Made by a program: the position numbers and the translations under genes | NCBI GenBank assembly: GCA_963705305.1 | Contig: OY970067.1 | Location: 1,920,001 to 1,984,000 of the forward strand | Length of the DNA stretch: 64,000 nt | Direction: 5' to 3' | From: an uncultured Methylomirabilota bacterium | GTDB lineage: Bacteria > Methylomirabilota > Methylomirabilia > Methylomirabilales > 2-02-FULL-66-22 | Shown: positions 29,659 to 52,947 of the stretch, in pieces | Position numbering within the stretch: position 1 is the stretch's first letter | Layout of the letters: each line of letters opens with the position of its first letter | Notes under the pieces: generated by a model | The model's input: only the letters and a program-made list of their open reading frames with translations | Database searches by the model: none | What the model was told of the DNA's origin: nothing

Positions 29659-29712
29659 CTGATGGGAGGGGCATGGGGGGTCGGCCGGCCCAACCCGTCG
29701 ATAGGAGAGCAG

Positions 29713-30516: not shown

Positions 30517-30534
30517 GGCCTCTGGGGGCGAGCC

Positions 30535-32839: not shown

Positions 32840-32860
32840 CCCGCAAGGCGGGAGACCGGC

Positions 32861-33140
32861 ATGATCCAGAATAGGCTTACGACCGCGCAGGCGGCGGTGG
32901 AACTCATCCGGGACGGCGACACCGTCGGCCTCATCGGCGGCGGCGGGCTCCTTGAGGCGTCCTGCCTTTTTGCCGCCATCGAGCGGCGGTTCCTGAGCAC
33001 AGGGTCCCCCAGGGCACTCACCCTCGTCCACGCGCTCGGCATCGGCGATCGCAAGACGCAGTGTCCTTGGCCACACGGACGTCGGCCCGGCGATACCCTG
33101 CGAGCCGATCATCATGCCGTCGAGCCACTTCACCGCCTGA
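32861..33140 (+). pseudogene. YdiF-type acyl-CoA:acetate CoA-transferase remnant with a large internal deletion
   Basis: N-terminal ~66 codons (TAQAAVELIRDGDTV...GGGGLLEA...LTLVHALGIGDR), then in another frame a C-terminus-like VLGHTDVGPAIPCEPIIMPSSHFTA*. Confidence 0.75.
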
Positions 33141-33153
33141 ACGGAGGCACAGC

Positions 33154-34188: not shown

Positions 34189-34229
34189 CCGATCGGCGGC
34201 GGATCTGCGGGGCCGAGAAAGAGGCCGAG

Positions 34230-35051
34230 ATGACGAGCCGGTACGTCGTGATCGGCAATCCGATCGCCCAGACCAAGTCCCCCTTTATTTACCGGGAGTT
34301 CGCCCGGCAAAGCGGGCAGGCCATGAGCTACGAGGCCATCCAGGCCCCCCTCGACGGATTCGCGGCGGTTCTGGCAGCGTTTCGTGCGGAAGGCGGGAAG
34401 GGCATCAACGTGGCCATGCCGTTCAAGATCGAGGCCTTCGCGCTGGCGACCGAGCTCACCGAACGGGCACAGCTCGCGGGCGCTGTCAACGTGATGCGAC
34501 TCGACGGCGAGCGAATCTTCGCGGACAACACCGACGGGGTCGGGCTGGTCCGCGACATCCGGGTCAATCTGAGGGGTGTGTTCCGCCGCGCACGCGTGCT
34601 TCTGCTGGGGGCAGGCGGCGCCGCCCACGGCGTAGCCCTGCCCATTCTCGAGGAGCGGCCCGCGCTCCTCGCCATCGCGAATCGCACCCCCGCCAAGGCC
34701 CGCGCGCTCGGCGCGCAGGTCTCGGGACGCGGCAACGTCGTGGCGGGAGGATACACCGAGGTCGCGGATGAGCCCTTCGATCTCGTCATCAACGCCACCC
34801 CGCCGAGCCCCAGCGGCGAGCCTCCCAGGGTCCCTGCCGCCGCGTTCAGGCGATGCGGCCTGGCCTACGACGTGGTGTACGGGAGAGGCCTCACTCCATT
34901 CCTGCGATTCGCCCGCGAGTCCGGTGCAGCCCGTGTGGCTGACGGCACCGGCATGCTGCTGGAGCAGGCCGCCGAGAATTTCTTCATCTGGCGGGGAATC
35001 CGCCCAGAGACGCAGGCACTGATCCGAAAGATTTCCGTGCCGCTCGTCTGA
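34230..35051 (+). CDS. aroE: Shikimate dehydrogenase (AroE-like)
   Basis: GNPIAQTKSP, NVAMPFK, AGAVN, NTDG.G, GAGGAA, NRT, DG.GML.EQAA. Confidence 0.85.
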   Translation: MTSRYVVIGNPIAQTKSPFIYREFARQSGQAMSYEAIQAPLDGFAAVLAAFRAEGGKGINVAMPFKIEAFALATELTERAQLAGAVNVMRLDGERIFADNTDGVGLVRDIRVNLRGVFRRARVLLLGAGGAAHGVALPILEERPALLAIANRTPAKARALGAQVSGRGNVVAGGYTEVADEPFDLVINATPPSPSGEPPRVPAAAFRRCGLAYDVVYGRGLTPFLRFARESGAARVADGTGMLLEQAAENFFIWRGIRPETQALIRKISVPLV

Positions 35052-35080
35052 ACCCTCTGGGAAGGAAAGGGGACTCGATC

Positions 35081-37138
35081 GTGGATCTCGGACAGGCAAC
35101 GCGGCCGATCATGTGGAACGTCCACGCCCCCTGGGTGATGTACGTCCTGTTCGGCGTGGCGCTGGCGATCTTCACCGCTGGCGTATACCGACGGGTCTCA
35201 GCGTGGCGGCGGGGGAAGGCGGATGAGGAGCGGCTCGGTGATTGGGGGAGGCGGCTCGCAATCTTGATCAAGGAGGTGCTTTTCCAGAGGCGGGTTCGCG
35301 ACGTGGCGCTGCCGGGCTGGTTCCACAGCCTCATCTTCTATTCCTTCCTCGTCCTCCTCGTCACCACATCGGTCGTGGCGCTGGACTACGACTTCGGGGC
35401 GCACTTCTTCAGGGGCTGGCTCTACGTGCTCCTCACCTTGGGCTGCGATGTCGGCGGGGCGCTGATCCTGGCCGGGGTGGTCATCGCCGGCCTGCGTCGG
35501 TATGTCCTCAAGCCGAAAACCATCGAGACGACGCTGGGGGACTCGTGGGCGCTGCTGCTCGTCGCGCTGCTGGTCCTGACGGGCTTCGCGGTCGCAGCGC
35601 TTCGCATCGCCGTGCTCGGCAGCCGCTGGGCGTACGTGTCCCCAGTTGCTTGGGCTCTGAGTGGGGCCTTCACCGGGATCTCACGCGAAACCCTCCGCCC
35701 CATTCACGCATGGATGTGGTGGTTGCACACCGCGCTGGCCATGACCTGGATTGCGACCATCCCGTTTACGAAGTTCTTTCACCTGCTGGCCCTGCCCACC
35801 AACGTGTTCTTCTCCAAGCTCGGGCCCCGCGGTGAACTGAAGCGCGTCGACATCGAAGCCCTCATGGCCGCCGATGATTTCGACGAGGCGGCTTTCAGTC
35901 TGGGCATTGCCAGGGCGGGCGACTTCACCTGGAAGCAGCGGCTGGACTTCGATGTGTGCATTTCGTGCGGGCGATGCGAGGAGGTGTGTCCGTCCTTCCA
36001 GGCGGGAGAGCCGTTCTCGCCCAAGCGGTTCGTCCAGGCGGGCCGCGAGCTGTCGGGCGACCGAGGCGGACGTGGAGGAGGCAGCGGCGAGGATCTACTG
36101 GTCGGGGGTCTGCTGGAGGAGCGGTTTATCTGGTTTTGCCGGACGTGCAGCGCGTGCGTGGAGGTGTGTCCCGCCGCAATCGACCACGTGGACACGATGG
36201 TGGAGGTGCGCCGGAACGAGCTGATGATGCAGGCCCGGCTGCCCGTCGAGGCTTCGCGCGCGTTGAAGCTGATGGAGTCGCAGGGCAACCCCTTCGGGAA
36301 CCGGAACCTCCGCAGCCAGTGGATCCAGCAGATGAAGGTGCCGGTAGTGCCATCCGGCGGAGATGTCGACGTGCTCTACTGGGTCGGCTGCCTCAGCACA
36401 TTCGACCAGTCGAAGCAGAAGATCGCGGCCGACGTGTTCAAGCTGCTGGAGCGATCGGGGCTCAGCTACGGCGTCCTGGGCGCCGACGAGACCTGCTGCG
36501 GGGATCCCGCCAGGGTGCTGGGCGACGAGCGACTGTTCCAGGAGAACGCCAAGGGGCAGGTCGCGGCCCTCCATGGCCGGACCTTCCGCACGCTGTTGGT
36601 GAGCTGCCCGCACTGCTTCAACGTCCTGGCGAACGAGTATCCGCAATTCGGAGCGAAGCTGAGGGTCGTCCACCACTCCCAGCTCCTCCAGGAGTTGGTG
36701 TCGCGCGGTGTGATCCGGCCCTCCCTGCCCAGCAGCGAGAAGATCGTCTACCACGACCCCTGTTACCTGGGCAGGTACCAGGGAATCTACGATGGCCCGA
36801 GGAAGCTGCTCGAGGCCATTCCGGGCGCCGCCGTGACTGAGATGGCCAGCTGCAAAGAGCGCAGCTTCTGCTGCGGCGGCGGTGGTGGACATTTCTGGAT
36901 GGACCTCAGAGCCGATGGTGCAGAGCGGGTCAACAATCTGCGCGTCGACCAGGCCCGCGAGGCTGGCGCAGCGGTCATCGCGACAGGTTGTCCCTACTGC
37001 CACCAGATGCTTGATGACTCGATAAAGCTTCGCGATCTGGACAAGCGGATGCGGGTGTTGGACATCGCCACGCTATTGCTTGACAGCGTTGAGGGGCGGA
37101 GGCCGACCGCCAGCCAGGACGGGGGTCTGCGACGCTGA
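35081..37138 (+). CDS. Membrane Fe-S oxidoreductase (FadF / ETF:menaquinone oxidoreductase-like; NarI-like TM domain + 2x[4Fe-4S] + CCG domains)
   Basis: TM helices with conserved His (FHSLIF, HTAL, KFFHL), CISCGRCEEVCP, CRTCSACVEVCP, CCG, CPHC, YHDPCYLGR, CCGGGGG, CPYC. Confidence 0.88.
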   Translation: MDLGQATRPIMWNVHAPWVMYVLFGVALAIFTAGVYRRVSAWRRGKADEERLGDWGRRLAILIKEVLFQRRVRDVALPGWFHSLIFYSFLVLLVTTSVVALDYDFGAHFFRGWLYVLLTLGCDVGGALILAGVVIAGLRRYVLKPKTIETTLGDSWALLLVALLVLTGFAVAALRIAVLGSRWAYVSPVAWALSGAFTGISRETLRPIHAWMWWLHTALAMTWIATIPFTKFFHLLALPTNVFFSKLGPRGELKRVDIEALMAADDFDEAAFSLGIARAGDFTWKQRLDFDVCISCGRCEEVCPSFQAGEPFSPKRFVQAGRELSGDRGGRGGGSGEDLLVGGLLEERFIWFCRTCSACVEVCPAAIDHVDTMVEVRRNELMMQARLPVEASRALKLMESQGNPFGNRNLRSQWIQQMKVPVVPSGGDVDVLYWVGCLSTFDQSKQKIAADVFKLLERSGLSYGVLGADETCCGDPARVLGDERLFQENAKGQVAALHGRTFRTLLVSCPHCFNVLANEYPQFGAKLRVVHHSQLLQELVSRGVIRPSLPSSEKIVYHDPCYLGRYQGIYDGPRKLLEAIPGAAVTEMASCKERSFCCGGGGGHFWMDLRADGAERVNNLRVDQAREAGAAVIATGCPYCHQMLDDSIKLRDLDKRMRVLDIATLLLDSVEGRRPTASQDGGLRR

Positions 37139-37353: not shown

Positions 37354-37412
37354 TTGACATTGGTTTTGTCAGGACTATTCTTTCTCTATAGAAGGAGTAT
37401 AATGAAAATATA
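37354..37412 (+). promoter_or_regulatory. gntR2 operon promoter with phased TATA array
   Basis: TTGACA 37354, TATTCT 37376, TATA at 37387, 37398 and 37409. Confidence 0.7.
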
Positions 37413-37427
37413 GTGAGGGGGGCGGCA

Positions 37428-38078
37428 ATGGCGATCGGGTCGAAAAGCAAGAAAGCCATCGTGTACGAAACACTGAAGAAGCGGATCGTTACCCACTCCT
37501 TGAAGCCCGGCGAGCCGATCAATGAGGTTCTCCTGGCCAGGGAACTGAAAACGAGCACGACGCCGTTGCGGGAGGCCCTGCAGCAACTGCAGAAGGAGGG
37601 CTTTGTCGAGAACTTCCCGGGACGAGGCTCATTCGTGTCCAGAATCTCCACGCAGGATGTCAGGGAGCTGTTCGAGATGCGGGAGATGCTGGAATGCGAG
37701 GTGATCAGGAGAGTGGTCTCCCAGGGCCTCGTGCGCGAGCAGAGGGCCCTGGCCATTCGCAAGGAGTTTGAATCGTCCGAGGGCAAGAGCCGCCCCACTT
37801 CGCGAAACTACTTCACGCCGGGCGACCAGATCCACCTGTTTGTTTTCGAATGTCTGGGGAACAGACGCCTGCTTGAGTACTACCGCAGCCTCCAGGAGCA
37901 CATCGAGCGCATGCGCCTCTATTTCTTCAGCAACTTCCACGAAGAACGGGCCGAGCACTCGTTCAAAGAGCACCTGGAGATCCTCGATGCGCTGCTCGCT
38001 CACGACGCCGATCGCGCCGAGCGCGCGGTGCGCACGCACCTGGAAAACGCCATGGACTACTTGAAGCGAATGACGTAG
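37428..38078 (+). CDS. GntR-family regulator (FCD domain), paralogue 2
   Basis: Shares VYETLK.RI, FVENFPGRG, GDQIH and EHLEILDAL with 24161-24802. Confidence 0.93.
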   Translation: MAIGSKSKKAIVYETLKKRIVTHSLKPGEPINEVLLARELKTSTTPLREALQQLQKEGFVENFPGRGSFVSRISTQDVRELFEMREMLECEVIRRVVSQGLVREQRALAIRKEFESSEGKSRPTSRNYFTPGDQIHLFVFECLGNRRLLEYYRSLQEHIERMRLYFFSNFHEERAEHSFKEHLEILDALLAHDADRAERAVRTHLENAMDYLKRMT

Positions 38079-38099
38079 GGCGAGCCGGAGGAGTGAGAC

Positions 38100-38771
38100 A
38101 TGATCCATGTAATCAGCAAGATCGAACGACCGAAGAAATCCGTGATCGACCAGTTTCGAGAGGTCGGGGCCGCAACCGTCCACGAGGCATCCGGCCGGAA
38201 AGGGGCCGTCGATCCAGCCATCAAGCCCATTGCCAGAGGGGTCCGGCTCTGCGGCTCCGCCTTCACCGTCCAGTGCCACCCCGGGGACAACCTGATGCTA
38301 CACAAGGCTCTGGAGCGCGCCCAGCCGGGCGATGTCCTGGTGGCGACCGTCGGGGGCTGCTACGAAGGCGGATACTGGGGCGGACTGATGGGGACCTCGG
38401 GCCAGGCCAGGGGCCTGGGGGGGCTGGCCATCGACGGATGCGTCCGCGACTCCGCCGAGCTCATCCAGATGGGACTCCCGATCTTCTGCCGGGGGTTTTC
38501 CATCCGGGGCACGGTGAAGAGTGTTCTGGGCCTGATCAATCACCCGACGGTCTTCGGGGGGATCATGGTTCAGCCGGGGGACCTGATCCTGGGAGATGAC
38601 GACGGACTCGTCGTGGTCGAGCGGGCGGAGTGCGAGAGGGTCCTGGAGAAGTCGCTCGAGCGGAAGCGCGCCGAAGAGAAGAAAGCCGAGCAGTTGCGGG
38701 CGGGCATCTCGAGCGTCGAGCTGAACAAGCTCGGCAAGGTGTTCGAGACGCTCGGGCTTGTCGAGGAGTGA
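38100..38771 (+). CDS. 4-carboxy-4-hydroxy-2-oxoadipate / 4-hydroxy-4-methyl-2-oxoglutarate aldolase (LigK/ProA/GalC, RraA family)
   Basis: ATVHEA.GR, PGDNL..H, GYWGGL, IDG.VRD, GTVK..LG..N, PGD.I..DDDG.VVV as recalled for LigK. Confidence 0.85.
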   Translation: MIHVISKIERPKKSVIDQFREVGAATVHEASGRKGAVDPAIKPIARGVRLCGSAFTVQCHPGDNLMLHKALERAQPGDVLVATVGGCYEGGYWGGLMGTSGQARGLGGLAIDGCVRDSAELIQMGLPIFCRGFSIRGTVKSVLGLINHPTVFGGIMVQPGDLILGDDDGLVVVERAECERVLEKSLERKRAEEKKAEQLRAGISSVELNKLGKVFETLGLVEE

Positions 38772-38774
38772 GCC

Positions 38775-39812
38775 ATGCCTACTGTCACCGAGGCGCAACT
38801 GAAGGCAGCCGTCAGTCAGGTGCTCACGGGGTATGGCGCAGCCGAGGATGAGGCTCGGCTGGCCGCGGAGAGCATGGTGCAGGCCGAGATGCGGGGAACG
38901 GACACGCACGGGCTGCCCTACCTCAAGCTCTTGATCGAGCGCATCGAGGCCCGGATGGTGGCGGTCCCGACGCAGGTCACCATCGTCCGACAGGACCGAG
39001 CCACGGGCCTCCTCGACGGGGGCAACGGGATCGGGCAGGTGGCCGGATCGAAGGCCATGGAGCTGAGCGCCCAGAAGGCGCGGGAGTTCGGAATCGGCCT
39101 CACCCTCGTCCGCAACACCAACAACATCGGCTTCCTGGCGTTCTATACCCTCCGCGCGGCGGGGCAGGGGCTCGTGGGAGTGGCGATGGGCAACGCCAAC
39201 GCCGCCATCTCTCCCTGGGGGGGTGCCGAGCCGTTTTTCGGTACCAATCCCCTTTCCATCGCGGTGCCCGGCGACGACGAGCCGCTGGTCCTGGATATGT
39301 CCTCGAGCCTGGTGGCGCGGGGCAAGATCCGCAAGGCGCAGCGGCTGGGGGAGAAGATCCCACTGGGATGGGCGCATGACGAGTTCGGCGTGCCGACGGA
39401 GGACCCGGGGGCTGCGCTCAAGGGGACACTCGTGCCCATCGGCGGGCCGAAAGGGTACGGCCTGGCGCTGATGGTGGACGTCCTCGCCGGGATGCTGTCG
39501 GGGGCCGCGTTCGGGCCGGATATCAAGAGCTTCCATCAGCTCATGGGGCCGACCCGTGTCGGGGTGTTGATGCTGGCGATCGATGTGGAGCGGTTTATGC
39601 CCCTGGCCCAATTCCGGGGCCTCCTGAAGGGGTACGTCGGTTCGATCCGCAGCAGCCGGAAGGCGAAAGGTACGTCCCGCATCTATCTCCCCGGGGAGAT
39701 CGAGTCGGAGAAGGAGAAGACGAGCCGGGCGCATGGCATCCGGCTGAGCGACCCCTCCGTCGAGATGTTGAACCAGCTCCTGGAGAAGGCGAAGAGTTCC
39801 CTGCGCTTCTGA
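38775..39812 (+). CDS. Ldh_2 family 2-hydroxyacid dehydrogenase (ComC/AllD-like)
   Basis: G.DTHGL, LDGGNGIG, FGTNPL, LDMSSS.VARGK, GPKGYGLA, PGE. Confidence 0.9.
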   Translation: MPTVTEAQLKAAVSQVLTGYGAAEDEARLAAESMVQAEMRGTDTHGLPYLKLLIERIEARMVAVPTQVTIVRQDRATGLLDGGNGIGQVAGSKAMELSAQKAREFGIGLTLVRNTNNIGFLAFYTLRAAGQGLVGVAMGNANAAISPWGGAEPFFGTNPLSIAVPGDDEPLVLDMSSSLVARGKIRKAQRLGEKIPLGWAHDEFGVPTEDPGAALKGTLVPIGGPKGYGLALMVDVLAGMLSGAAFGPDIKSFHQLMGPTRVGVLMLAIDVERFMPLAQFRGLLKGYVGSIRSSRKAKGTSRIYLPGEIESEKEKTSRAHGIRLSDPSVEMLNQLLEKAKSSLRF

Positions 39813-39873
39813 GCGAGGACTGTCGTCGGTGTTGAGGAAGATGGCCGCCGTGGGGAGGGCGAAGGAGGATAGC

Positions 39874-40620
39874 ATGAACGAGCTGAAGGATCAGGTCGTG
39901 GCCGTGACGGGTTCGGGGAAGGGGCTGGGAAAGGGGATCGCCGAGCGGTGTTATGCCGAAGGGGCCATGGTCGTCACCTGGGATCGGTCCGGCCTGGCGA
40001 AGGGCGTGGCGGATACGCTGGATCCCTCCGGCAAGCGAACGCTCTACGTCCGGGCGGATGTGCGAGAGGAGAACCAAGTGGCGCAGGCCTTCGCCGAGAT
40101 CATGAAGAAGTTCGGGCGGGTGGACGTGCTCGTCAACAACGCTGGCATCTCGCGCCACAAGCCCATCGAAGAGATGAGCGTGGATCTCTTCGAAGAGGTG
40201 ATGAACACGAACACGACGGGCGTCTTTATCTGCTGCAAGGCCGCGACCCCCATCATGAAGAAGCAGGGGCGGGGCAAGATCGTCAACATCGCGTCCCTGG
40301 GAGGGCGCACCGGCCGGCCCGGCGTAGGGGTGAATTACGCGGCCTCCAAGGCCGCCGTGATCGCCATCACACAGACCCTGGCCCGGGAGCTGGGGCCGTC
40401 GGGGATCTACATGAACGCCATCGCCCCCGGTCCGATCCTGACAGAGCAAACCCGCCAATACCCCCCGGAGGTGTTTGCCAAGTGGAATGCCGGCCGGGCA
40501 GTCCAGAAGGACGGCCTGCCCGAGGACGTGGCCGACGCGGTCCTCTTCCTCGCCTCGAATCGGTCGGACTGGGTGACGGGGGTGACGCTGGATCTCAACG
40601 GCGGGATCCTCATCCGGTAG
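39874..40620 (+). CDS. SDR oxidoreductase, paralogue of 24944-25690
   Basis: TGSGKGLG, NNAGISRH, YAASK; AAGGAGG RBS. Confidence 0.9.
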   Translation: MNELKDQVVAVTGSGKGLGKGIAERCYAEGAMVVTWDRSGLAKGVADTLDPSGKRTLYVRADVREENQVAQAFAEIMKKFGRVDVLVNNAGISRHKPIEEMSVDLFEEVMNTNTTGVFICCKAATPIMKKQGRGKIVNIASLGGRTGRPGVGVNYAASKAAVIAITQTLARELGPSGIYMNAIAPGPILTEQTRQYPPEVFAKWNAGRAVQKDGLPEDVADAVLFLASNRSDWVTGVTLDLNGGILIR

Positions 40621-40695
40621 TCGTGAAATCGTGTGGGGCCGGCGCCGATCCTGTCGGCGGCGCCGGCGCGGCACCCTGCAAGAAAAGGAGGCGCG

Positions 40696-41055
40696 ATGTC
40701 CGAGCTGAAAGTCGTCAACATCAAGGATGTCCCTGGAGAGCGGCGGGATCCACCCCGGACGTCATGGATTCTCGTCTCGGAAAAGACCGTTGGCGCGCAA
40801 AATCTGGCGATGGGCGTCAACGAGACCGAGCCGGGGAGCATGGTGCCGGCGCACAAGCACGAGAAGGAAGAGGAGGTCATGTTCTTCCTGCAGGGGACCG
40901 GAAAGTTCGTCACCGAGGACCGGGAGATTCCGATCGGGCCGGGGATCGTGATCTATAACCCGCCGGGGAAGACGCACAAGATCCTGAACACGGGAAGCGA
41001 GGTCCTTCGGTTCGTCTGGATCTACGCGCCCCAGCTGGCAAGCCACCGCAAGTAA
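40696..41055 (+). CDS. Cupin domain protein
   Basis: PAHKHEKEEEVMFFLQG.G and PPG..H cupin metal motifs; AGGAGG RBS. Confidence 0.9.
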   Translation: MSELKVVNIKDVPGERRDPPRTSWILVSEKTVGAQNLAMGVNETEPGSMVPAHKHEKEEEVMFFLQGTGKFVTEDREIPIGPGIVIYNPPGKTHKILNTGSEVLRFVWIYAPQLASHRK

Positions 41056-41078
41056 CGAGGGGCAAAACTCAACCCGAA

Positions 41079-41130
41079 GTTCGTCTGGATCTATGCGCCG
41101 CAGTTGCCGCGGCATCGAGTGCAGACATGA
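41079..41130 (+). repeat. Duplicated 3' end of the cupin gene (remnant)
   Basis: Encodes FVWIYAPQLPRHRVQT* vs FVWIYAPQLASHRK* at 41011-41055, with synonymous differences. Confidence 0.8.
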
Positions 41131-41155
41131 CATCGAGAAGGAGGTAAGGGACGCC

Positions 41156-42121
41156 ATGAGCGACTGGAAATTCCCGCCGGCAGGCGGGCACATGGAAAAG
41201 CCCTCGAAGATCTATTACCAGACGATGACGAAGAAGGACATCGAGGAGCGCCTAAAGGTCAACGACATCCTGCTCATCCCGTTCGGCTCGACCGAGAACC
41301 ACGGCGACGCGCAGCCGTACGGCGAGGACGTGTTCATCGTGACGAGGATGTGCGAGATGATCGCGCAGAAGACCGGATGCACCGTGGCGGAGCCACTCTG
41401 GTACGCCTCGCATCCCTTCGCCCACCTGGGGCAGACGGGGACCGTTCCCATCCCCGACGATCTGACATCGGCGCTCGTGCGCTCGATCGTCTCAGGGTAC
41501 TGGAACGCAGGGTTCCGCAAGCAGATCCTGATGAGCAGCCACGGGCAAGAATACATCATCCCATCGGCCATCCAGGAGTGGGCCAAGAAGTACCAAGTTC
41601 CCGCCGTGATCATTTTCCTGGACGTGATGAAGATCATGGGCGACGCGCTGAAGGACAAGGCCCACGGCGGCCCCTTCGAGACCCCCTTCCGGCACGGTGA
41701 CGAGGCGGAGAACTCCATCTGCCTGGCGCTCTTCCCCGAGTTCGTGCAGATGGAGAACTGCGTCGACACCAAGACGTGGGGCTTCCTGCCCGAGGGGCAT
41801 ATCGACAAGGGCGGCGACATCTACAACTACCCCATTCCCGGCCAGAGCCACGTTGGCGGCAGCGGGGTGGAGTTCGCGGTCTATCCGGAAGGCGTGCTGG
41901 GCAAGCCGTCGCTCGCCAAGGCCGAGAAAGCCTACCAGGCCATCGAGAACTACATGAATTACGTTGTCAAGCTGCACAACGACATCCGGGCGAAATTCCC
42001 TCCGGGGGTGCTGCCGGAGGCAAAGTACATGACCCAGAGGAGCGCGGAGGAGATCGATCTTCTCCTCAAGGGGCCGGACAGGGGCGGCAGGCACCTCTAC
42101 ACGATCGCCTGGCCTGCGTGA
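41156..42121 (+). CDS. iolN: Creatininase-family ring hydrolase closely resembling Thermotoga IolN (3-dehydro-scyllo-inosose hydrolase)
   Basis: YYQTMT, IP.GSTENHG, GED, KTGCTVAEP.WY, GFRKQIL...HGQE, GGP.ETPF.H.DE.E, GFLPEGHIDK, YPEGV.GK match the IolN sequence as recalled. Confidence 0.8.
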   Translation: MSDWKFPPAGGHMEKPSKIYYQTMTKKDIEERLKVNDILLIPFGSTENHGDAQPYGEDVFIVTRMCEMIAQKTGCTVAEPLWYASHPFAHLGQTGTVPIPDDLTSALVRSIVSGYWNAGFRKQILMSSHGQEYIIPSAIQEWAKKYQVPAVIIFLDVMKIMGDALKDKAHGGPFETPFRHGDEAENSICLALFPEFVQMENCVDTKTWGFLPEGHIDKGGDIYNYPIPGQSHVGGSGVEFAVYPEGVLGKPSLAKAEKAYQAIENYMNYVVKLHNDIRAKFPPGVLPEAKYMTQRSAEEIDLLLKGPDRGGRHLYTIAWPA

Positions 42122-42277
42122 TCGGGAGGATTGTGAAAAGGGCAGTCGTCAAGGCAAACCAGAGTCCGGGCTCCTAAGCCGCTCACCCAGCTTGGGAGAG
42201 CCCGTTCCTTGGTTCATCGGCCGCGGGGGAGGCGCCGCTCGACCCTCCCCCGCGGTCTCAACACGCGAGGTCTGGAC

Positions 42278-43309
42278 ATGAAAGCCATTGTGAAAGCGCG
42301 GGAAGATGCGGGGGCCATGGAGGTCCGAGAGCTTCCCGTCCCGGAGCCCGGACCCGGCGAAGTGCTGGTCAAGATGCGGGCCGCAGGGATCTGTTTCAGC
42401 GACGTGATGATCCTGAACAACAAGTACAAGGGACGGGTCCCCGTGCCGATCCCTATGATCATGGGCCACGAGGGCGCGGGAGAGGTGGCCGCGGTCGGCA
42501 AGGGCGTGGAGCATGTCAAGGCCGGTGACAAGGTCGGCCTCAACCCGCTGTGGGGCTGCGGGCAGTGCGTGGATTGTCTGAACGGGCAGCCAAACATGTG
42601 CTCGACGTGGCGCCATCTGGGGATCACCTGCGACGGAACGTTCGCGGAATACCGGGCTGTTCCGGCCTTCACCGCCTGCAAGCTGCCGAAAAGCATCTCG
42701 CCGGTCGATGCCGCCTTCATCGAACCGATCAGCCTGGCGGTCCGTACCTTCGAGCATGTGAAACCGGTGCTCGGCGACACGGTGGCCATCATCGGCCCGG
42801 GATCGATCGGGCTCTTCCATCTGCAAGCCTTCAAGTCGGCGGGTGCTGCCAAGATAATGGTGATCGGCCTGGACCAGGACGCTCAGCGGTTCGAGATCGC
42901 GAAGCAGTTGGGAGCCGACCACATCATCAACGGGAGTAAGGAAGACGTGGTGAAGCGGGTGCGGGAGCTGACCAACGGCCTGGGAGCCGACATTGTTGTC
43001 GAAACCGCGAACCATCCCGCCACCGTCCCGCTGGCCGTCAACCTGGCTGCGGCACGAGGCCGCGTGCATCTGTTCGGTCTCTATCCGGAAGCCGCCATGA
43101 GCCCGCTCACCCTCCTCCGGGCTGGTGTGACCATGTCCGGAGACGTGGCGACCCTTCCGCGGTACTTCCTGCGAGCCATGCGCTGGATCGAGTACAAGAA
43201 GGTCCTGGCCGCGCCCATGGTCACCCGGTCGTTCCGTCTCGATCAGGCGCAAGAGGCCTTCCAGGCCTTCAGCCGGGGGGACAGCGTAAAGGTTCTGTTC
43301 GAGATGTAG
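42278..43309 (+). CDS. Zn-dependent dehydrogenase (MDR; positional analogue of IolM)
   Basis: GICFSD, GHEGAG, CGQCVDC..G..NMC, GPGSIG. Confidence 0.9.
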   Translation: MKAIVKAREDAGAMEVRELPVPEPGPGEVLVKMRAAGICFSDVMILNNKYKGRVPVPIPMIMGHEGAGEVAAVGKGVEHVKAGDKVGLNPLWGCGQCVDCLNGQPNMCSTWRHLGITCDGTFAEYRAVPAFTACKLPKSISPVDAAFIEPISLAVRTFEHVKPVLGDTVAIIGPGSIGLFHLQAFKSAGAAKIMVIGLDQDAQRFEIAKQLGADHIINGSKEDVVKRVRELTNGLGADIVVETANHPATVPLAVNLAAARGRVHLFGLYPEAAMSPLTLLRAGVTMSGDVATLPRYFLRAMRWIEYKKVLAAPMVTRSFRLDQAQEAFQAFSRGDSVKVLFEM

Positions 43310-43335
43310 GCAGCCCGTCACAAGGGGAGATGACC

Positions 43336-43782
43336 ATGAAGAAGATCCTGGTGCTGCATGGGGTCAACCTGAATATGTTCGGGAAGCGCGACCCCACCCA
43401 GTACGGGACAATCACCCTCGAGGAGATCAATCAGCAGCTCAGTGCCCTGGCCAGAGAGCTGGGGGTGGAGCTGGAGACCTTCCAGACGAACTTCGAAGGG
43501 GAGATCTGCGAGAAGATCCACACGGCGCACCTGGACAAGGTCGATGCGGTGATCGTCAACGCCGGCGCCTGGACGCATTACAGCATCGCTCTGCGCGACG
43601 CCCTGGCGATCCTGAAGGTCCCCATCATCGAATGTCACATGTCGAACATCCACGCGCGGGAGGAGTTCCGACACGTCTCCCACGTTTCTCCCCTGGCCAA
43701 GGGCATCATCGCCGGGTTCGGGGTTCAGAGTTATCTCCTGAGCCTTCGGGCCGCGGCAGCGCTGCTGTCAGGACAGGGATAG
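43336..43782 (+). CDS. aroQ: Type II 3-dehydroquinate dehydratase
   Basis: ILVLHG.NLN..GKRDP..YG, FQTN.EG, NAGAWTHYS.ALRDA, ECHMSNIHAREEFRH.S; alternative start 43330. Confidence 0.95.
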   Translation: MKKILVLHGVNLNMFGKRDPTQYGTITLEEINQQLSALARELGVELETFQTNFEGEICEKIHTAHLDKVDAVIVNAGAWTHYSIALRDALAILKVPIIECHMSNIHAREEFRHVSHVSPLAKGIIAGFGVQSYLLSLRAAAALLSGQG

Positions 43783-43829
43783 AAGGGGCGGGGCGCATCG
43801 GCGGACATCGTCAGCGGATGGAGTGCGGG

Positions 43830-44705
43830 ATGACGAAGACCCGATATGCATTTCTTCTGGGACAGCACATTTCCCATTCGCTTTCGCCGGCGATCCACAA
43901 TTCCGCCTATGCCGCGCTGGGGCTGGACTGCGAATTCCGGCTGCTCGACGTGCCCCCGGCCCAGCTCCGGGAGGCCCTGGCGCGCCTGCGACAACCCGAC
44001 TGTTTGGGGGCCATCGTCACCATGCCGTACAAACAGGAGATGCTCGCCGCCGCGGACGAGTGCTCGGATGCGGTCCGCCGCTGCGAGGCCGCCAATCTCA
44101 TAATCAACCGCGACGGGCGCTTTGCGCTCCACAACAACGATGTCGAGGCCATCGCCGCCTGCCTGGGTCGTCGCGCGGCCACGGTGGCCAGGGGGCAGGC
44201 GGTGATCCTGGGGGCGGGCGGCGCGGCGGCCGCCATGCTGGAGGCGCTGCGGCGCGTCCCGCCGACCCGGGTGCTCGTTCTGGCCCGGCGCGTGGAAGCC
44301 GCCACAGCGCTCGCCGGGCGGGCCCGCGACTGGCTCGGGGTGCCCGTCGAGGCGGGCCATCTGGCGGAGGGTGTGCCGGCGATGGCCACGGCGGCGGTCA
44401 TCTTCAATGCCACGCCTCTGGGGATGCGGCCGGGCGACCCCAGTCCCGTGCCGCGGGAAGCGCTGCGGCCCGGCCTGCTGGTCTATGACATCGTGTACCA
44501 GCGCGGGGGGCTCAGCGCGCTGCAGGCTGACGCCCTCGCCGCCGGGGCCCTGGTGTGCGATGGGTTGACCCATATCTTCGAGCAGACGCCCTTCTCCTTC
44601 CAGATGCTGACGGGCCGACCCGCCCCTCGCGAGGTGATGCTGAAAAGCCTCGTGGCGGCGGCGGGCCGAGAGCCGCTGGACTGGGGGGCGGATCGTCCAA
44701 CGTAA
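43830..44705 (+). CDS. Shikimate/quinate dehydrogenase family protein (divergent)
   Basis: HSLSP.IHN, VTMPYK, AAN, HNND, GAGGAA, NATPLGM, YDIVY. Confidence 0.85.
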   Translation: MTKTRYAFLLGQHISHSLSPAIHNSAYAALGLDCEFRLLDVPPAQLREALARLRQPDCLGAIVTMPYKQEMLAAADECSDAVRRCEAANLIINRDGRFALHNNDVEAIAACLGRRAATVARGQAVILGAGGAAAAMLEALRRVPPTRVLVLARRVEAATALAGRARDWLGVPVEAGHLAEGVPAMATAAVIFNATPLGMRPGDPSPVPREALRPGLLVYDIVYQRGGLSALQADALAAGALVCDGLTHIFEQTPFSFQMLTGRPAPREVMLKSLVAAAGREPLDWGADRPT

Positions 44706-44744
44706 ACGCGGCGAAAAGCGAGGCCGCAAAAGGAGGTTCCCCCC

Positions 44745-45071
44745 ATGATATACGAGATGCGTACCTACACCGCGATGCCCGGACGCCTGGCGGATCTGCA
44801 CAAGCGCTTTGCGGAGATCACGCTGGGCTTCTTTCAGAAACACGCCATTCGTGCCGTGGGATTCTGGACCAACGAACTGGGGGGCTCCTCGGATCAGTTG
44901 ATCTACATGCTGGCCTACGACAGCCTGGCCGATCGGGAAAAGAAGTGGGGCGCTTTCCTGGCGGATCCAGAGCGGTCGGCCAAGTTTGCGGAGACGGAGA
45001 AGAACGGCCCGCTGGTCCGGTGCCTCACGGCCCAGATCCTGCGGCCCACTCCGTACTCACCCATGCAGTGA
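44745..45071 (+). CDS. NIPSNAP family protein
   Basis: IYEMRTY...PG, F..H....VGFW, W.AF.ADP, LRPTPYSP. Confidence 0.9.
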   Translation: MIYEMRTYTAMPGRLADLHKRFAEITLGFFQKHAIRAVGFWTNELGGSSDQLIYMLAYDSLADREKKWGAFLADPERSAKFAETEKNGPLVRCLTAQILRPTPYSPMQ

Positions 45072-45114
45072 CGGGCAAGGACACACTGGCGATTCCAGTT
45101 CGAGGAGGTCGGAC

Positions 45115-46845
45115 GTGCGCAACATCGTGAGGGTCAACACCCGGACAGGCGAGATTCGCATCACAGCCGGCTCGGAGGACGAGCTTCGGTGGGGAGGCCG
45201 CTCGTTGATCGCGCACCTGATGCTGCGCGACGTGCGCCCCAGCTGTGATGCGCTGGGGAGAGAGAACAGGCTCATCGTGGCCTCGGGATGGTTGGGTGAC
45301 ACCTCGGTGACCACGGCGGGGCGATGTTCCGTTGGGGGCAAAAGCCCGCTCACGGGCGGTGTCAAGGAGGCCAACGTCGGCGGCGAGCCCGGCAGGAAGC
45401 TGGCGCGGCTCGGTATGCGGGCGCTGATATTGGAGGACGCGCCCGAGACGGCCGAGGCGCGGGTGCTCTGGATCGGAAAAGACAGGTGTGAGCTGCTGCC
45501 CGCGCCGGAGCTGCGGAAGGCGGAAGTGGCGCGGACCTTTCAGCTTCTGCACGAGCGGTTCGGCGAGGATGTCGGTATCTTCTGCATTGGGCCGGCGGGA
45601 GAAATGCGGCTCGGCGGCGCGGCCATCGCCACCACGGACAAGACGGGTGTCCAGGCGCGGTTTGCCGCGCGCGGCGGCTTGGGCGCCGTGATGGGCGCCA
45701 AGGGCATCAAGGCGATCGTCATCGACGATGCGGGCGTGCGGCCGGAGCCGGCCCATGACCCCGCCGCCTTGAATGCGGCCGGCCGGGAGCTATGGCAGAT
45801 CCTGCGGGATGACCCGAAGACCCAGAACCGCCACGACTTCGGGACGCCGGCCGTTCTGTCCATCTGCGACTCCCTCGGCATTCTCCCGACCCGGAACTTC
45901 CGGACCGGCCACTTCGAGGGGTTCGAGGCCATCTCGGGCGAGCGGGTGGCCGACCTGATCGTGGGTCGGGGCGGCGAGGGTGAGCGGGGAGTCCTGTGCG
46001 TTCGCGGCTGCAACATCCAGTGCTCCAACAATTTCCCCGACCCCGGCGGGAAGACGCTGGTGGCCTCGCTGCAGTACGAGAATATCGGCCTGCTGGGCTC
46101 GAATTGCGGCATCGACGATGTGGATGAGGTGGCCAGGATCAACCACCTCTGCAATCAGGTGGGGGTTGATACGATTGAAACCGGGGCGGCCATCGGCGTG
46201 GCCATGGAAGCCGGCGTGATCCCCTTCGGCGACTCGACGGGGGCCAAGGATCTCGTCCAGCAGATCGGACGGGGCACACCGCTCGGCCGGGTGCTGGGAA
46301 GCGGCGTGGTCGTGACCGGGCGCGTGTTCGGGGTCGGCCGCATCCCCGCCGTCAAGGGGCAGGCCATCCCCGCGTACGACCCGCGGTCGCTGAAGGGGAT
46401 CGGGGTCTCGTATGTGACCTCCCCCATGGGGGCGGATCACACCGCGGGCAACGCCCTGGAGATGGCCAAGGCCCTTGACCAGAAGAAAAAGGAAGGGCAG
46501 GTCGAGGCGTCGTTGCGGCTGCAGGTTCGGGCCGCACTCCTCGACAGTCTGGGGGTCTGCCTCTTCATTCGGCCGGCCTTTGTGAAGAACCCCGACCTCC
46601 TTCCGCGGCTGCTCAACGCCCGGTACGGCTGGTCCCTCACCTTTGCCGAGGTGCGGCAGATGGGGATCGAGTGCCTGAAAATGGAGCGGGACTTCAACCG
46701 CCTCGCCGGCGTGCTGGACGAGCTGTGCGACGTACCCGAGTTCATGCGGACCGAGCCGCTGCCGCCCTTCAACACGGTTTTCGATGTGCCTCGCGAGGAG
46801 ATGCAGCGGATCTGGGACGTGCAACTCCCCGAGGGTGTCTTTTAG
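45115..46845 (+). CDS. Aldehyde:ferredoxin oxidoreductase (W/Mo-pterin AOR family)
   Basis: KSPLTGGVKEAN.GG, IGPAGE, AARGGLGAVMG.K..KAIV, C..GC.I.C, YE, G.DTIE.G, KGQ.IP.YDPR, GADHT; GAGGAGG RBS before GTG. Confidence 0.92.
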   Translation: MRNIVRVNTRTGEIRITAGSEDELRWGGRSLIAHLMLRDVRPSCDALGRENRLIVASGWLGDTSVTTAGRCSVGGKSPLTGGVKEANVGGEPGRKLARLGMRALILEDAPETAEARVLWIGKDRCELLPAPELRKAEVARTFQLLHERFGEDVGIFCIGPAGEMRLGGAAIATTDKTGVQARFAARGGLGAVMGAKGIKAIVIDDAGVRPEPAHDPAALNAAGRELWQILRDDPKTQNRHDFGTPAVLSICDSLGILPTRNFRTGHFEGFEAISGERVADLIVGRGGEGERGVLCVRGCNIQCSNNFPDPGGKTLVASLQYENIGLLGSNCGIDDVDEVARINHLCNQVGVDTIETGAAIGVAMEAGVIPFGDSTGAKDLVQQIGRGTPLGRVLGSGVVVTGRVFGVGRIPAVKGQAIPAYDPRSLKGIGVSYVTSPMGADHTAGNALEMAKALDQKKKEGQVEASLRLQVRAALLDSLGVCLFIRPAFVKNPDLLPRLLNARYGWSLTFAEVRQMGIECLKMERDFNRLAGVLDELCDVPEFMRTEPLPPFNTVFDVPREEMQRIWDVQLPEGVF

Positions 46846-47832: not shown

Positions 47833-48861
47833 ATGAAAGCGGTAGTCCTTCATGCCTATGGTGGACCGGAAGAGCTGAAAGTAGAGGAGGTGCCGCAGCC
47901 GACGCCGACCCCCGAGGAGGCCTTGGTCCGTATCCGGGCATGCGGGGTGTGTCATCTGGACATGATCGTGCGCTCGGGGATGCGGTCCCGAGCAACGCTT
48001 CCGCGGATCATCGGACACGAGCTCGCGGGGGAAGTTGTCGAGGTGGGCCCTGCGGTCAAGGATCTCTCGCCGGGTGACCGGGTCGCCTCCTTCAACTTCC
48101 AGGCGTGCGGCGAGTGCGAATGGTGCCGCCGGGGGCGTCCCTCTCTCTGTGTGCATCTGAAGGGGGACATCGGCCAGGGGCGGGATGGGGGCTACGCAGA
48201 ATACGTCGCGCTTCCCAGCGCCAACCTCGTCCGGATTCCCGACGGGCTGCCGTTCGAGCACGCATGTCTGGCCGCCTGCTGTTTCGCGCCGCCGTACAAG
48301 GCGATCCGACGGGTTGGGCGGATCCGACCCGGGGACACCGTGCTGGTCACGGGCGCCAGCGGCGGTCTGGGGATGGCGGCCATCCAGATCGCGCGCAAGT
48401 GTGGCGCGAGAACCATCGCCATCACCGCATCGCTATCGAAGGCGGAACGGGTGAAGGCCGCAGGGGCGGACGAGGTCATCGTCAACGGCGATGGCACCTT
48501 TGGGGACGAAGTGCGCAGGCTGACGGACGGAGCGGGGACGGACCTCGTCGTGGAGACGGTGGGCGGCCCAGCCTTCGCTGGGTCGCTTCGCAGCCTGGCG
48601 CGGGGCGGACGCTACGTGATCGTCGGTGAGCTGCACGGGAAACCGGTGCAAATGAATCTCGCGCTGATCATCCTGAAGGAGTGGGAGATCTACGGCGTGC
48701 AGAGCGCCTCGCGGGACGATCTGCACGAGATCCTCCACTTCATGCACCGCACCGGGCTGACGCCGACCATCTGGAAGACGATGCCGCTCGCCCAAGCCGC
48801 GGAGGCCCATTGCCAGCTCGCGAACCGGGAGGCGGTGGGCCGGATCATCTTGACGCCGTGA
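47833..48861 (+). CDS. Zn-binding MDR oxidoreductase (enoyl-CoA/acryloyl-CoA reductase- or ADH-like)
   Basis: GVCHLD, GHELAG, CGECEWC, VLVTGASGGLG. Confidence 0.85.
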   Translation: MKAVVLHAYGGPEELKVEEVPQPTPTPEEALVRIRACGVCHLDMIVRSGMRSRATLPRIIGHELAGEVVEVGPAVKDLSPGDRVASFNFQACGECEWCRRGRPSLCVHLKGDIGQGRDGGYAEYVALPSANLVRIPDGLPFEHACLAACCFAPPYKAIRRVGRIRPGDTVLVTGASGGLGMAAIQIARKCGARTIAITASLSKAERVKAAGADEVIVNGDGTFGDEVRRLTDGAGTDLVVETVGGPAFAGSLRSLARGGRYVIVGELHGKPVQMNLALIILKEWEIYGVQSASRDDLHEILHFMHRTGLTPTIWKTMPLAQAAEAHCQLANREAVGRIILTP

Positions 48862-49044
48862 CACCTCTGCTTGAAGGACGCGGACGGAGAGGAGGCGGGA
48901 CACTCAGGGCAGCGCCAGAAGTAACCAGGCTTCTTCATCGGGGGCCGTGGGCCCCAAGGAGGGCAGGAGATGGCAAGCATGGGAGGAGGCTCGAGGGTGT
49001 CCATGCGCACGGGGTGCGGCGGAGGCACATCGCGGGAAAAGGGC

Positions 49045-50241
49045 ATGTCCCTGCCGGGAGGATTCGCCCTGGGGCGACGTGGGGTCCTGCTGGTCCTTGG
49101 AGTGGCGCTTGTCGCCGCACTGGCGGCCGTACCGCCCGCGTTCGCCCAGACCGTCAAGCTCGCCACCCTGGCGGAGATCACGGGAGCCGGCGCGCCCGTT
49201 GGAAACATGTGGCGCGACGGAGTCAACCTGGCGGTTGAGGACATCAACAAGAAGGGCGGGATCCTGGGCCGGAAGGTGGAGAACATCACCATGGACACCC
49301 AGTCGGACCCGCCGACCGCCGTGTCCGTCATGCGTCGCGCGCTCAACGAGAAGCCGTTTGCCATCCTGGGGCCGGTGTACAGCAGCGGCACGCTGGCCAA
49401 CATGGACCTTGCGCGCCAGACCGGCATCCCCCAGATCACCGGGTCCGAAGCGGTGTTCCTGGTCGAAAAGGGGAATCCCAATATTTTTCTGACCTCCTTC
49501 ACTCAGCAGGTCAGCTTTGCGATTGCTGTCCGCTGGCTCGTCGACGATCTCAAGGCGCAGAAGATCGCGCTGATCTGGGTGAACGACGCCTTTGGCAAAG
49601 GCGGTCGGGACATGTTCCTCAAGTTTCTCAAGGAGAGAGGCAAGCCCCCCGTTGCGGATATTTCCACAGAGGTGGGGCAGGCCGATTTCACACCGGAGCT
49701 GACCCAGGTGCGGGCCTCCGGGGCTACCTACGTCATGATTTACCTCCACGAGGAGGAAAGCGCGCGCTTGATGATCCAACTCCGCAGCCTCGGGCTGAAC
49801 ATCCATGCGGTCGGTGAAACAACCCTCTGCACTCAGGACACCATCAATGCGGGCGGGGACGCCCTGAACGGTGCCATGTGCCATGTGCCGATGACGGCAG
49901 ATGCGCCCATTCCTGCCATGGTGGACGTGGCCAAGCGGTTTCGGGAGAAGTACGGGCACGGGCCAGACCACAACGCCTTCAAAGCATATATCGGAGTCCA
50001 CATGGTGAAGACAGTCGTGGACCGGGTAGGCGCCTTCGACCAGGCCAAGTTCCGCGACTGCTTGCATAACAACCTGTTCACCACGGCAGACGAACCCGGG
50101 TTGCTCATGGACATGTACATGGCCAACAACGGGGATGCCGATCGCCAAAGCTTTATCGTGGAGGTGCAGAACCGCCAGCAGAAGGTGATCGAGGCCGTGC
50201 CGATGTTGCACGGGCCCTACACCAAGCGGGCCTGTCGCTAA
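49045..50241 (+). CDS. Liv/HAAT-type ABC substrate-binding protein 1; start uncertain
   Basis: Signal peptide; LAVEDINKKGGILGRK, NDAFGKGG, DFTPEL. Confidence 0.9.
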   Translation: MSLPGGFALGRRGVLLVLGVALVAALAAVPPAFAQTVKLATLAEITGAGAPVGNMWRDGVNLAVEDINKKGGILGRKVENITMDTQSDPPTAVSVMRRALNEKPFAILGPVYSSGTLANMDLARQTGIPQITGSEAVFLVEKGNPNIFLTSFTQQVSFAIAVRWLVDDLKAQKIALIWVNDAFGKGGRDMFLKFLKERGKPPVADISTEVGQADFTPELTQVRASGATYVMIYLHEEESARLMIQLRSLGLNIHAVGETTLCTQDTINAGGDALNGAMCHVPMTADAPIPAMVDVAKRFREKYGHGPDHNAFKAYIGVHMVKTVVDRVGAFDQAKFRDCLHNNLFTTADEPGLLMDMYMANNGDADRQSFIVEVQNRQQKVIEAVPMLHGPYTKRACR

Positions 50242-50301
50242 AGCGGCGACCGGGGGGGGAGCCCCGGCTCCCCCTCTCTCGGGTAATCCTGGGGGACTGG
50301 C

Positions 50302-51177: not shown

Positions 51178-51190
51178 GGAGGAGACACCC

Positions 51191-52186: not shown

Positions 52187-52207
52187 TCCCGGCAAGGGAG
52201 AGCCAGG

Positions 52208-52945: not shown

Positions 52946-52947
52946 GC

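Follow-up and report, generated by a model that had tools for sequence, protein, structure and literature searches.

A conserved gene cluster from a Methylomirabilota genome and a proposed oxygen-independent, hydrolytic route from quinate-type ring acids to pyruvate and oxaloacetate

Which growth substrate is served by a run of genes that joins a LigK-type aldolase, an IolN-like hydrolase and a 3-dehydroquinate dehydratase is the question raised by positions 37413-46845 of a 64,000-nucleotide stretch of DNA from an uncultured Methylomirabilota bacterium (contig OY970067.1, positions 1,920,001 to 1,984,000; hereafter the window). An earlier note on this DNA had interpreted the run as an O2-independent ring-opening pathway for quinate and shikimate, an interpretation that is partly supported here, in that the comparative linkage of the genes bears it out while the substrate stays inferred. 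The gene cluster is real, widely conserved and carried mostly by anaerobic bacteria; its gene content, synteny, clade structure and the non-orthologous replacement of one of its members are directly observed. Together with transporters and a further gene set at 23017-28958, the run most likely forms, as judged from its sequence, an operon for the catabolism of a hydroaromatic carboxylic acid, with quinate or shikimate as the substrate via 3-dehydroquinate. It is considered fairly probable that the encoded pathway would be hydrolytic and O2-independent and would lead from a dehydroquinate-type ring to pyruvate and oxaloacetate.

Gene families were called on the open reading frames (ORFs) of the window with Pfam and NCBIfam profiles against curated cut-offs, and starts were set from homologue lengths and start codons with Shine-Dalgarno-like sequences. 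Ten named genes and a regulator were found, all on the + strand and separated by intergenic gaps of 3 to 156 nt. The run opens with a GntR/FCD regulator (37413-38078; PF00392 and PF07729), followed by a LigK-type (RraA-like) class II aldolase (38100-38771; PF03737, 150 bits; NF006731, 225.5 bits, cut-off 179), an Ldh_2-family 2-hydroxyacid dehydrogenase (38775-39812; PF02615, 367 bits), a short-chain dehydrogenase (SDR; 39874-40620; adh_short_C2, 218 bits), a small metal-binding monocupin of the Cupin_2 family (40696-41055; PF07883) and a predicted IolN-like C-C hydrolase of the creatininase fold (41156-42121; NF041098, 490 bits, cut-off 245; PF02633, 144.8 bits). Next come a Zn-dependent medium-chain dehydrogenase (42278-43309; ADH_N and ADH_zinc_N, with 201 bits on the IolM model against a cut-off of 450), the type II 3-dehydroquinate dehydratase AroQ (43330-43782; TIGR01088, 188 bits, cut-off 169.85), an AroE-like dehydrogenase (43830-44705, with an alternative start at 43818; Shikimate_dh_N, 81 bits, under every NCBIfam cut-off), a NIPSNAP-domain protein (44745-45071; PF07978, 85 bits) and a tungsten-type aldehyde:ferredoxin oxidoreductase (AOR; 45115-46845; AFOR_N, 170 bits, and AFOR_C, 226 bits). 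All ten families named in the earlier note were recovered where it had placed them, and the starts it had used for the SDR, the hydrolase and the Zn-dehydrogenase (39874, 41156 and 42278) agree with the homologue lengths and with Shine-Dalgarno-like sequences. Its statement that the window holds no ring-cleavage dioxygenase, LigI/LigJ or IolE/IolO also stands, since a scan of 19 + 96 window ORFs revealed none of the domains Dioxygenase_C, LigB, Amidohydro_2 and AP_endonuc_2. A promoter-like TTGACA-16-TATTCT lies at 37354-37381, before the GntR gene; the number of such sites is not above chance.

The context of the hydrolase in other genomes was followed in two scans, one with the hydrolase itself as query against a single genome of each species, which gave 41 loci, and one with an alignment, from which the best 80 of 571 relatives were taken. 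The proteins of the window and marker proteins were mapped onto all loci by tblastn, and a gene was counted if it lay within 9 kb of IolN. Two trees were built, one of 128 IolN-family sequences and a second, quick tree of 75 sequences including Thermotoga-genus loci. In the family, clades with the arrangement IolG-IolM-IolN-IolO stand opposite a cupin-linked clade B, inside which lies a LigK-linked clade B1; the support for B and B1 by the Shimodaira-Hasegawa-like approximate likelihood ratio test (SH-aLRT), 99 and 100 respectively, represents quick-tree values from the 75-sequence tree. The window hydrolase is placed in B1, the single clade that takes in all LigK-linked loci. Unless all 71 B1 rows are named, the counts below refer to fully flanked loci, in which IolN has 6 kb or more of sequence on either side and which number 42 in B1 and 11 in the sister group B2.

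Among these loci LigK is found in 42/42 of B1 and 0/11 of B2, Ldh_2 in 41/42 and 8/11, the cupin, directly upstream of IolN, in 39/42 and 11/11, and the AOR in 33/42 and 11/11. As LigK stays beside IolN in every fully flanked B1 relative, chance cannot reasonably account for the gene arrangement. In the full set of 71 B1 rows, the counts are 56 for LigK, 55 for Ldh_2, 51 for the AOR, 63 for the cupin, 17 for AroQ, 54 for the Zn-dehydrogenase, 45 for the SDR, 20 for a GFO/IDH/MocA dehydrogenase and 6 for an AroE-like gene of the type found in locus L020, with a GntR gene ahead of LigK in 47; of the 15 rows that lack LigK, 13 end less than 4 kb upstream of IolN, the exceptions being L069 and, in part, L096. 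The order LigK-Ldh_2-AOR-(SDR)-cupin-IolN is kept over at least five phyla (Spirochaetota, Thermodesulfobacteriota, Atribacterota, Bacillota and Methylomirabilota); in the Thermosediminibacteraceae loci the SDR is absent and a second Zn-dehydrogenase is present instead. The B1 cluster also occurs in the isolates Desulfacinum infernum DSM 9756, Fervidicola ferrireducens Y170 and Thermovorax subterraneus DSM 21563, whose genera we take to be strict anaerobes. The recurrent linkage to LigK and Ldh_2 genes that a gene-neighbourhood search had been expected to reveal is present, as is linkage to the cupin and AOR genes, mostly in anaerobic lineages. The expected linkage to aro genes was found in part: AroQ lies within 9 kb in 13/42 B1 loci (0/11 in B2, 0/5 in clade A), often as two copies, and an orthologue of the AroE-like gene of the window occurs in one relative, L079.

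Transporter genes are almost constant companions of the cluster, at least one of the TRAP, TTT or Liv types being encoded in 40/42 B1 loci. TRAP or TTT systems account for 37/42 in B1 and 1/11 in B2, and Liv-type ABC systems for 3/42 and 9/11. TRAP and TTT systems are organic-acid importers, and their presence argues for a carboxylate substrate and against inositol. Moreover, no IolM, IolO or IolG was found in any of the 71 B1 rows at the identity thresholds used, the corresponding figures for fully flanked loci being 0/0/0 in B1 and 1/0/0 in B2. The outcome that would have spoken for inositol, namely inositol genes in place of aro genes around the relatives, was seen only in other clades of the hydrolase.

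The strongest single argument for an aldehyde among the intermediates comes from the loci without an AOR. Nine fully flanked B1 loci show no AOR match (L002, L004, L013, L027, L053, L055, L057, L068 and L085). A PF00171 aldehyde dehydrogenase is encoded in three of them, L057, L068 and L085, in the last of these between Ldh_2 and the cupin, which is the slot of the AOR, and likewise in the partly flanked L011 and L040; in L027 the AOR gene is broken, and neither enzyme was seen in L002, L004, L013, L053 and L055. The replacement of the AOR by an aldehyde dehydrogenase in five loci supports an aldehyde as an intermediate of the pathway. In addition, the B2 sister loci retain cupin, IolN, AOR and Ldh_2 without LigK and AroQ, which fits a module dedicated to the CO-CH2OH end of IolN products, and LigK would fit the tertiary carboxy-carbinol (the C1 centre) of a quinate-type compound.

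On these grounds a sequence of seven steps can be proposed. Initially, the AroE-like, SDR or GFO/IDH/MocA dehydrogenases and AroQ would funnel quinate and shikimate to 3-dehydroquinate, AroQ being the presumed link between 3-dehydroshikimate and 3-dehydroquinate and the SDR a candidate ring dehydrogenase, e.g. for the conversion of quinate to 3-dehydroquinate. AroQ matches PDB entry 6CV6 at 207 bits and has the histidine of its motif ('ECHMSN'), whereas the AroE-like protein reaches 182 bits on its best model, NF001319, against a cut-off of 252, and so does not attain equivalog status. The Zn-dehydrogenase beside IolN would then oxidise C5, giving 3,5-didehydroquinate, a cyclic 2-hydroxy-1,3-dione; by its profile scores this enzyme is not IolM, and it reaches 241 bits on the Tdh model (cut-off 458), with threonine and sorbitol dehydrogenases as PDB relatives. 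In the third step, the IolN-like hydrolase would cut the C3-C4 bond with water, yielding HOOC-CH2-C(OH)(COOH)-CH2-CO-CH2OH. Homologues of this protein are 321 amino acids long, a PDB sequence search retrieved creatininases only, and the family positions that align with what we take to be the metal ligands of creatininase are invariant in A1.

The cupin would subsequently convert the ketol end to a 2-hydroxyaldehyde, a role proposed from gene position only; its residues His53, His55, Glu59 and His94 do not vary among 24 homologues, and its AlphaFold2 model, with a predicted local distance difference test score of 92.4, has generic monocupins as its closest folds in Foldseek, phosphomannose isomerases among them. 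The AOR, or an NAD(P)-dependent aldehyde dehydrogenase in some relatives, would oxidise the aldehyde to the acid; with 65.8 bits on NF007354 against a cut-off of 868, the protein belongs to the AOR family without being an equivalog of the enzyme for which that model is named. Ldh_2 would oxidise the resulting 2-hydroxy acid to 4-carboxy-4-hydroxy-2-oxoadipate (CHA); it scores under all NCBIfam equivalog cut-offs, and its PDB relatives are type-2 malate, sulfolactate and ureidoglycolate dehydrogenases. Finally, the LigK-type aldolase would cleave CHA to pyruvate and oxaloacetate. The nearest PDB structure is 3NOJ (181.9 bits over 217 residues), the 4-hydroxy-4-methyl-2-oxoglutarate (HMG)/CHA aldolase of P. 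putida, and counterparts of its Arg123, Asp124 and Glu199 are retained; these residues and Asp102 we take to be the catalytic arginine and the acidic residues of the metal site.

Carbon-by-carbon bookkeeping, derived in this work, leads from 3,5-didehydroquinate to exactly the skeleton of CHA, and the overall balance, also our own derivation, would be quinate + 2 H2O -> pyruvate + oxaloacetate + 8 [H]. Four oxidoreductases are needed for 8 [H], which matches a feeder dehydrogenase, the Zn-dehydrogenase, the AOR and Ldh_2. An RraA-type aldolase requires a 4-substituted, 3-deoxy 4-hydroxy-2-oxo acid, and this requirement, the types of transporter, the enrichment of AroQ and some AroE-like genes point to a carboxylate related to dehydroquinate. 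The pathway would be a new combination of known kinds of enzyme, and as a hypothesis it is well-founded.

Several observations weigh against this reading. At the substrate end, AroQ accompanies only a minority of the B1 clusters, AroE-like genes are rare (the L020 type in 6/71 loci), the AroE-like gene of the window has its orthologue (78%) in L079 alone among the loci compared, and IolG-like GFO/IDH/MocA genes, all of them under the family cut-off, occur in 20/71 loci. As for the enzymes, the hydrolase scores as an IolN equivalog on NF041098, and it is 53-55% identical to IolN of Thermotoga and Pseudothermotoga loci in metagenome-assembled genomes (MAGs), which were taken from a pattern scan as stand-ins for the characterised T. 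maritima IolN, a protein not among the 120 rows listed by a homologue search seeded from L116. Of two equivalog models, the aldolase passes NF006731 and fails TIGR02798 (214.5 bits, cut-off 304.5), and it has a glycine at the position of Asp102 of 3NOJ; no specific function could be given to the cupin by PDB sequence search, Atlas, or AlphaFold2 model with Foldseek, which returned only generic monocupins; and the SDR has no unique step. Chemically, 3,5-didehydroquinate should lose water readily to give gallate, so that rapid capture would be required. Finally, the genome contains three haem-copper oxidase subunit I genes, so that the host need not be a strict anaerobe; the term O2-independent, as used in the earlier note, applies to the proposed chemistry and not to the organism.

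A rival reading is that the same enzyme logic might serve another ring acid as growth substrate, either gallate, after an AroQ-like hydration or a reduction, or an unrecognised carboxylated cyclitol, with quinate and shikimate as side feeders or non-substrates. LigK is indeed known from the lower pathway of gallate and protocatechuate, 29/42 B1 loci have no AroQ, many Spirochaetota loci hold a second AroQ copy without the motif histidine, and genes for tannase (L086, L089 and L108) or BD-FAE esterase (L102, L103, L104, L110 and L114) stand in B2 sister loci. The Zn-dehydrogenase beside IolN in 54/71 B1 loci, however, fits the oxidation of an alcohol to a dione and would be needless for gallate, whose hydration would, on chemical reasoning, cost the molecule its aromaticity, and B1 has no conserved decarboxylase or ring reductase; another ring acid is regarded as an unlikely candidate for the growth substrate.

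A variant of the inositol pathway of the Thermotoga type, in which IolG-like and Zn-dependent dehydrogenases would form diketo-inositol, IolN would yield 5-keto-L-gluconate, and cupin, AOR and Ldh_2 would lead on to a keto-aldarate, draws on the score of the hydrolase, twice the NF041098 cut-off, on the name '3-dehydro-scyllo-inosose hydrolase' given to members of the clade in the sources, and on the GFO/IDH/MocA genes in 20/71 loci and in the window. It is very improbable: IolM, IolO and IolG are missing from all 71 B1 loci at the identity thresholds used, the Zn-dehydrogenase falls short of the IolM cut-off, TRAP/TTT transporters prevail and AroQ is enriched, and the 3-deoxy-4-hydroxy-2-oxo acid needed by an RraA-type aldolase could be reached from inositol carbon only through a dehydratase, none of which is conserved. 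Moreover, the true IolG-IolM-IolN-IolO loci belong to other clades (IolG 467-477 bits, above 355; IolM 549-555, above 450; IolO-like 230-247, below 300), which take in the Thermotoga and Pseudothermotoga MAG loci with sugar-type binding proteins and stand apart from the window hydrolase in the quick tree, and the genome has an IolM-IolN pair of its own. The inositol reading was rejected on these grounds. Least credible of all is that the genes adjoin one another but share no pathway, or that they belong to biosynthesis, for instance as an alternative route towards dehydroquinate. Two Atribacterota loci do abut genes of aromatic amino acid synthesis (DAHP and EPSP synthase in L053, prephenate dehydrogenase in L022), but the gene order shared by five or more phyla, the presence of uptake systems and of a GntR/FCD regulator, as is typical of catabolism, and a C-C hydrolysis that, by chemical reasoning, could not feasibly be reversed from the free acid led to the rejection of a biosynthetic or reverse reading as well.

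A wider form of the quinate/shikimate proposal can be advanced more tentatively, with slightly less than even confidence: the cluster would represent a non-aromatising, O2-independent quinate/shikimate route of anaerobes, transferred between at least five phyla, in which cupin, IolN, AOR (or aldehyde dehydrogenase) and Ldh_2 form a general cassette leading from a cyclic 2-hydroxy-1,3-dione to a 2-oxo acid, and the LigK-less clusters would employ the cassette anew, together with a U32-like protein, for other plant ring compounds such as acids derived from tannins or chlorogenate.

The hydrolase gene may have a history of its own in this genome. A paralogue elsewhere in the genome, 35% identical to the window protein, adjoins a true IolM (552 bits, cut-off 450). 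A third IolN paralogue (C1:5198217-5199141; L051:10215-11187), 48-53% identical to that of the window, is split over two frames, either by a frameshift in the gene or by an error of assembly, and adjoins a sugar-type ABC transporter and an SDR. Furthermore, the IolN gene alone (window 41073-42127) is 88-92% nucleotide-identical to Spirochaetota and Syntrophaceae MAG loci (L027, L001, L003 and L009), whereas the remainder of the cluster is closest to the Methylomirabilota MAG locus L079 (76-85% at the nucleotide level), whose IolN is only 62% identical in protein sequence. This looks like a recent orthologous replacement of a single gene across phyla. L079 is also the closest syntenic locus, with protein identities of 77% for LigK, 75% for Ldh_2, 80% for the SDR, 77% for the cupin, 91% for the Zn-dehydrogenase, 75% for AroQ, 78% for the AroE-like protein and 84% for the AOR.

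By the comparison of loci, AroQ and AroE are to be classed as accessory genes of the cluster, and NIPSNAP, ECH and a second Zn-dehydrogenase (47833-48861) as lying outside the conserved part, NIPSNAP and ECH having no counterparts in the related loci and the second Zn-dehydrogenase a single match (41%), in L079. Farther downstream, on the + strand, a Liv-type ABC transporter (48970-53658; Peripla_BP_6, BPD_transp_2 and ABC_tran) consists of a binding protein (48970-50241), two permeases (50302-51177 and 51119-52186) and two ATPases (52208-52945 and 52948-53658). It has a counterpart inside the L079 cluster (substrate-binding protein 41%, permeases 53-54%) and is the probable uptake system in this lineage.

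The earlier note had confined the locus to 38100-46845; the run is indeed present there, but the island is larger and, by sequence comparison, reaches upstream to a second set of regulator, SDR and TRAP genes at 23017-28958. This set, called with Pfam, comprises a Zn-dehydrogenase on the - strand (23017-24123), a GntR/FCD regulator (24161-24802) that is 73% identical to the regulator of the L079 cluster, an SDR (24944-25690) with 70-74% identity to cluster SDRs, a TRAP DctQM fusion (25731-27749) and a DctP (27894-28958) that is 54-61% identical to TRAP binding proteins within Syntrophales/Thermodesulfobacteriota clusters. No ligand could be transferred to the TRAP and Liv-type binding proteins, whose PDB relatives are too distant (~190 and ~85 bits). 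Between this set and the main run, a GFO/IDH/MocA dehydrogenase (33061-34188, + strand; IolG model, 141 bits, cut-off 355), homologues of which (40-48%) occur in 20/71 B1 loci, and a canonical AroE (34230-35051, + strand; NF001310, 318 bits, cut-off 221) are possible feeder dehydrogenases. Both belong to a co-oriented run at 29638-37138 with EtfB, EtfA, an acyl-CoA dehydrogenase and a membrane CCG/4Fe-4S oxidoreductase with a nitrate-reductase-gamma-like domain. A single ORF of 567 amino acids on the - strand (20830-22533), some 15 kb upstream of the cluster, encodes a shikimate kinase fused to a 3-dehydroquinate synthase (SKI + DHQ_synthase).

Some features of the related loci deserve a separate record. 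In the B2 clusters, which are hosted by Chloroflexota, Acidobacteriota, Bipolaricaulota and Bacillota, a protein of ~304 amino acids without a Pfam match is encoded between cupin and IolN (L102:9053-9967); counterparts occur in 25/30 B2 rows and in all fully flanked B2 loci (11/11, against 0/42 in B1), and Atlas gives a Peptidase_U32-like lead only. With tannase and esterase genes near several of them, the B2 clusters may represent a related pathway for other plant ring acids. In Spirochaetota, where AroQ genes are paired, the E-x-H-x-S-N motif of the second copy (L020:16776-17237, L016:12140-12583 and L023:955-1380) shows Phe or Gln instead of the histidine, a residue which we take to be catalytic, and this copy may be altered in function or inactive. 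An AP_endonuc_2 protein adjoins the AroQ genes in L020; no solved relative was found at E <= 1, and a role as dehydroshikimate dehydratase is neither supported nor excluded. Spirochaetota clusters also encode a Creatinase_N/Peptidase_M24 protein after the Zn-dehydrogenase (L020:13809-15285; 14 B1 loci), often with a ThiS-like small protein after it; the former fits none of the proposed steps.

Plants contain quinate and shikimate in abundance, both as free acids and within chlorogenic acids. Specialised quinate/shikimate fermenters exist, such as Ilyobacter insuetus (Brune et al. 2002, as cited in PMC10512730). No locus from Ilyobacter or other Fusobacteriota appeared among the loci listed, 80 of 102, in a scan with an AT-rich codon pattern, a result that does not imply absence. 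The earlier note knew of no characterised pathway with this gene set, and a full-text literature search, with subscription journals outside its coverage, agrees in having found no description of the gene set or of an anaerobic, non-aromatising quinate pathway. If the proposal is true, a hydrolytic route to pyruvate and oxaloacetate would close a gap in the anaerobic carbon cycle of soils, sediments, digesters and guts, and the clade proteins would need a name other than the '3-dehydro-scyllo-inosose hydrolase' now assigned to them automatically. A tungsten-type AOR would acquire a defined physiological role, and hydroaromatics could be converted enzymatically to central metabolites without oxygen.

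One of the nearest known systems is the inositol pathway of Thermotoga maritima, which, as outlined in PMC5931981 (citing Rodionova et al. 2013), is encoded by TM0411-TM0416, involves IolG, IolM, IolN and IolO, and passes through diketo-inositol and 5-keto-L-gluconate. Both systems place a creatininase-fold hydrolase beside a Zn-dependent dehydrogenase, and in both the ring would be converted to a 2-hydroxy-1,3-dione and opened hydrolytically to an acid with a CO-CH2OH end. They differ in that the window hydrolase belongs to another IolN clade, its dehydrogenase is not IolM and neither IolO nor IolG is present; moreover, the importers of B1 are of the TRAP, TTT or Liv type, whereas inositol loci have a sugar-type ABC binding protein, and the downstream enzymes of B1 are cupin, AOR, Ldh_2 and LigK.

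With the 4,5-cleavage pathway of protocatechuate and the lower pathway of gallate (LigI, LigJ and LigK; GalB and GalC) the proposed route would share CHA, the aldolase family and the products pyruvate and oxaloacetate. Unlike those pathways, the window has no ring-cleavage dioxygenase, LigI, LigJ or GalB/GalD-type context, and the whole genome, a single contig of 5.65 Mb (98.9% complete, 6.5% contamination), has no match to the PF00775 (intradiol) and PF02900 (LigB-type) dioxygenases; here a non-aromatic ring would be hydrolysed and the product converted to CHA in three more steps. The aerobic catabolism of quinate and shikimate proceeds through quinate/shikimate dehydrogenase, AroQ/QsuC and dehydroshikimate dehydratase to protocatechuate dioxygenases. 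The likely substrates, the AroE-like dehydrogenases and a type II dehydroquinase are common to both, while in the cluster no dehydroshikimate dehydratase was recognised and neither aromatisation nor an O2-dependent step is proposed.

In the anaerobic phloroglucinol pathway, phloroglucinol reductase is followed by the hydrolytic opening of dihydrophloroglucinol. The point of likeness is that anaerobes open a cyclic 1,3-dione with water and without O2; the enzyme families, the substrate and the products are different. Finally, the proposed fourth and fifth steps mirror hexuronate metabolism, in which uronate isomerase interconverts ketol and uronate and uronate dehydrogenase oxidises the aldehyde to the aldarate; in the cluster, a small cupin and a tungsten-type AOR (or aldehyde dehydrogenase) would take over these functions, acting on a branched C7 acid.

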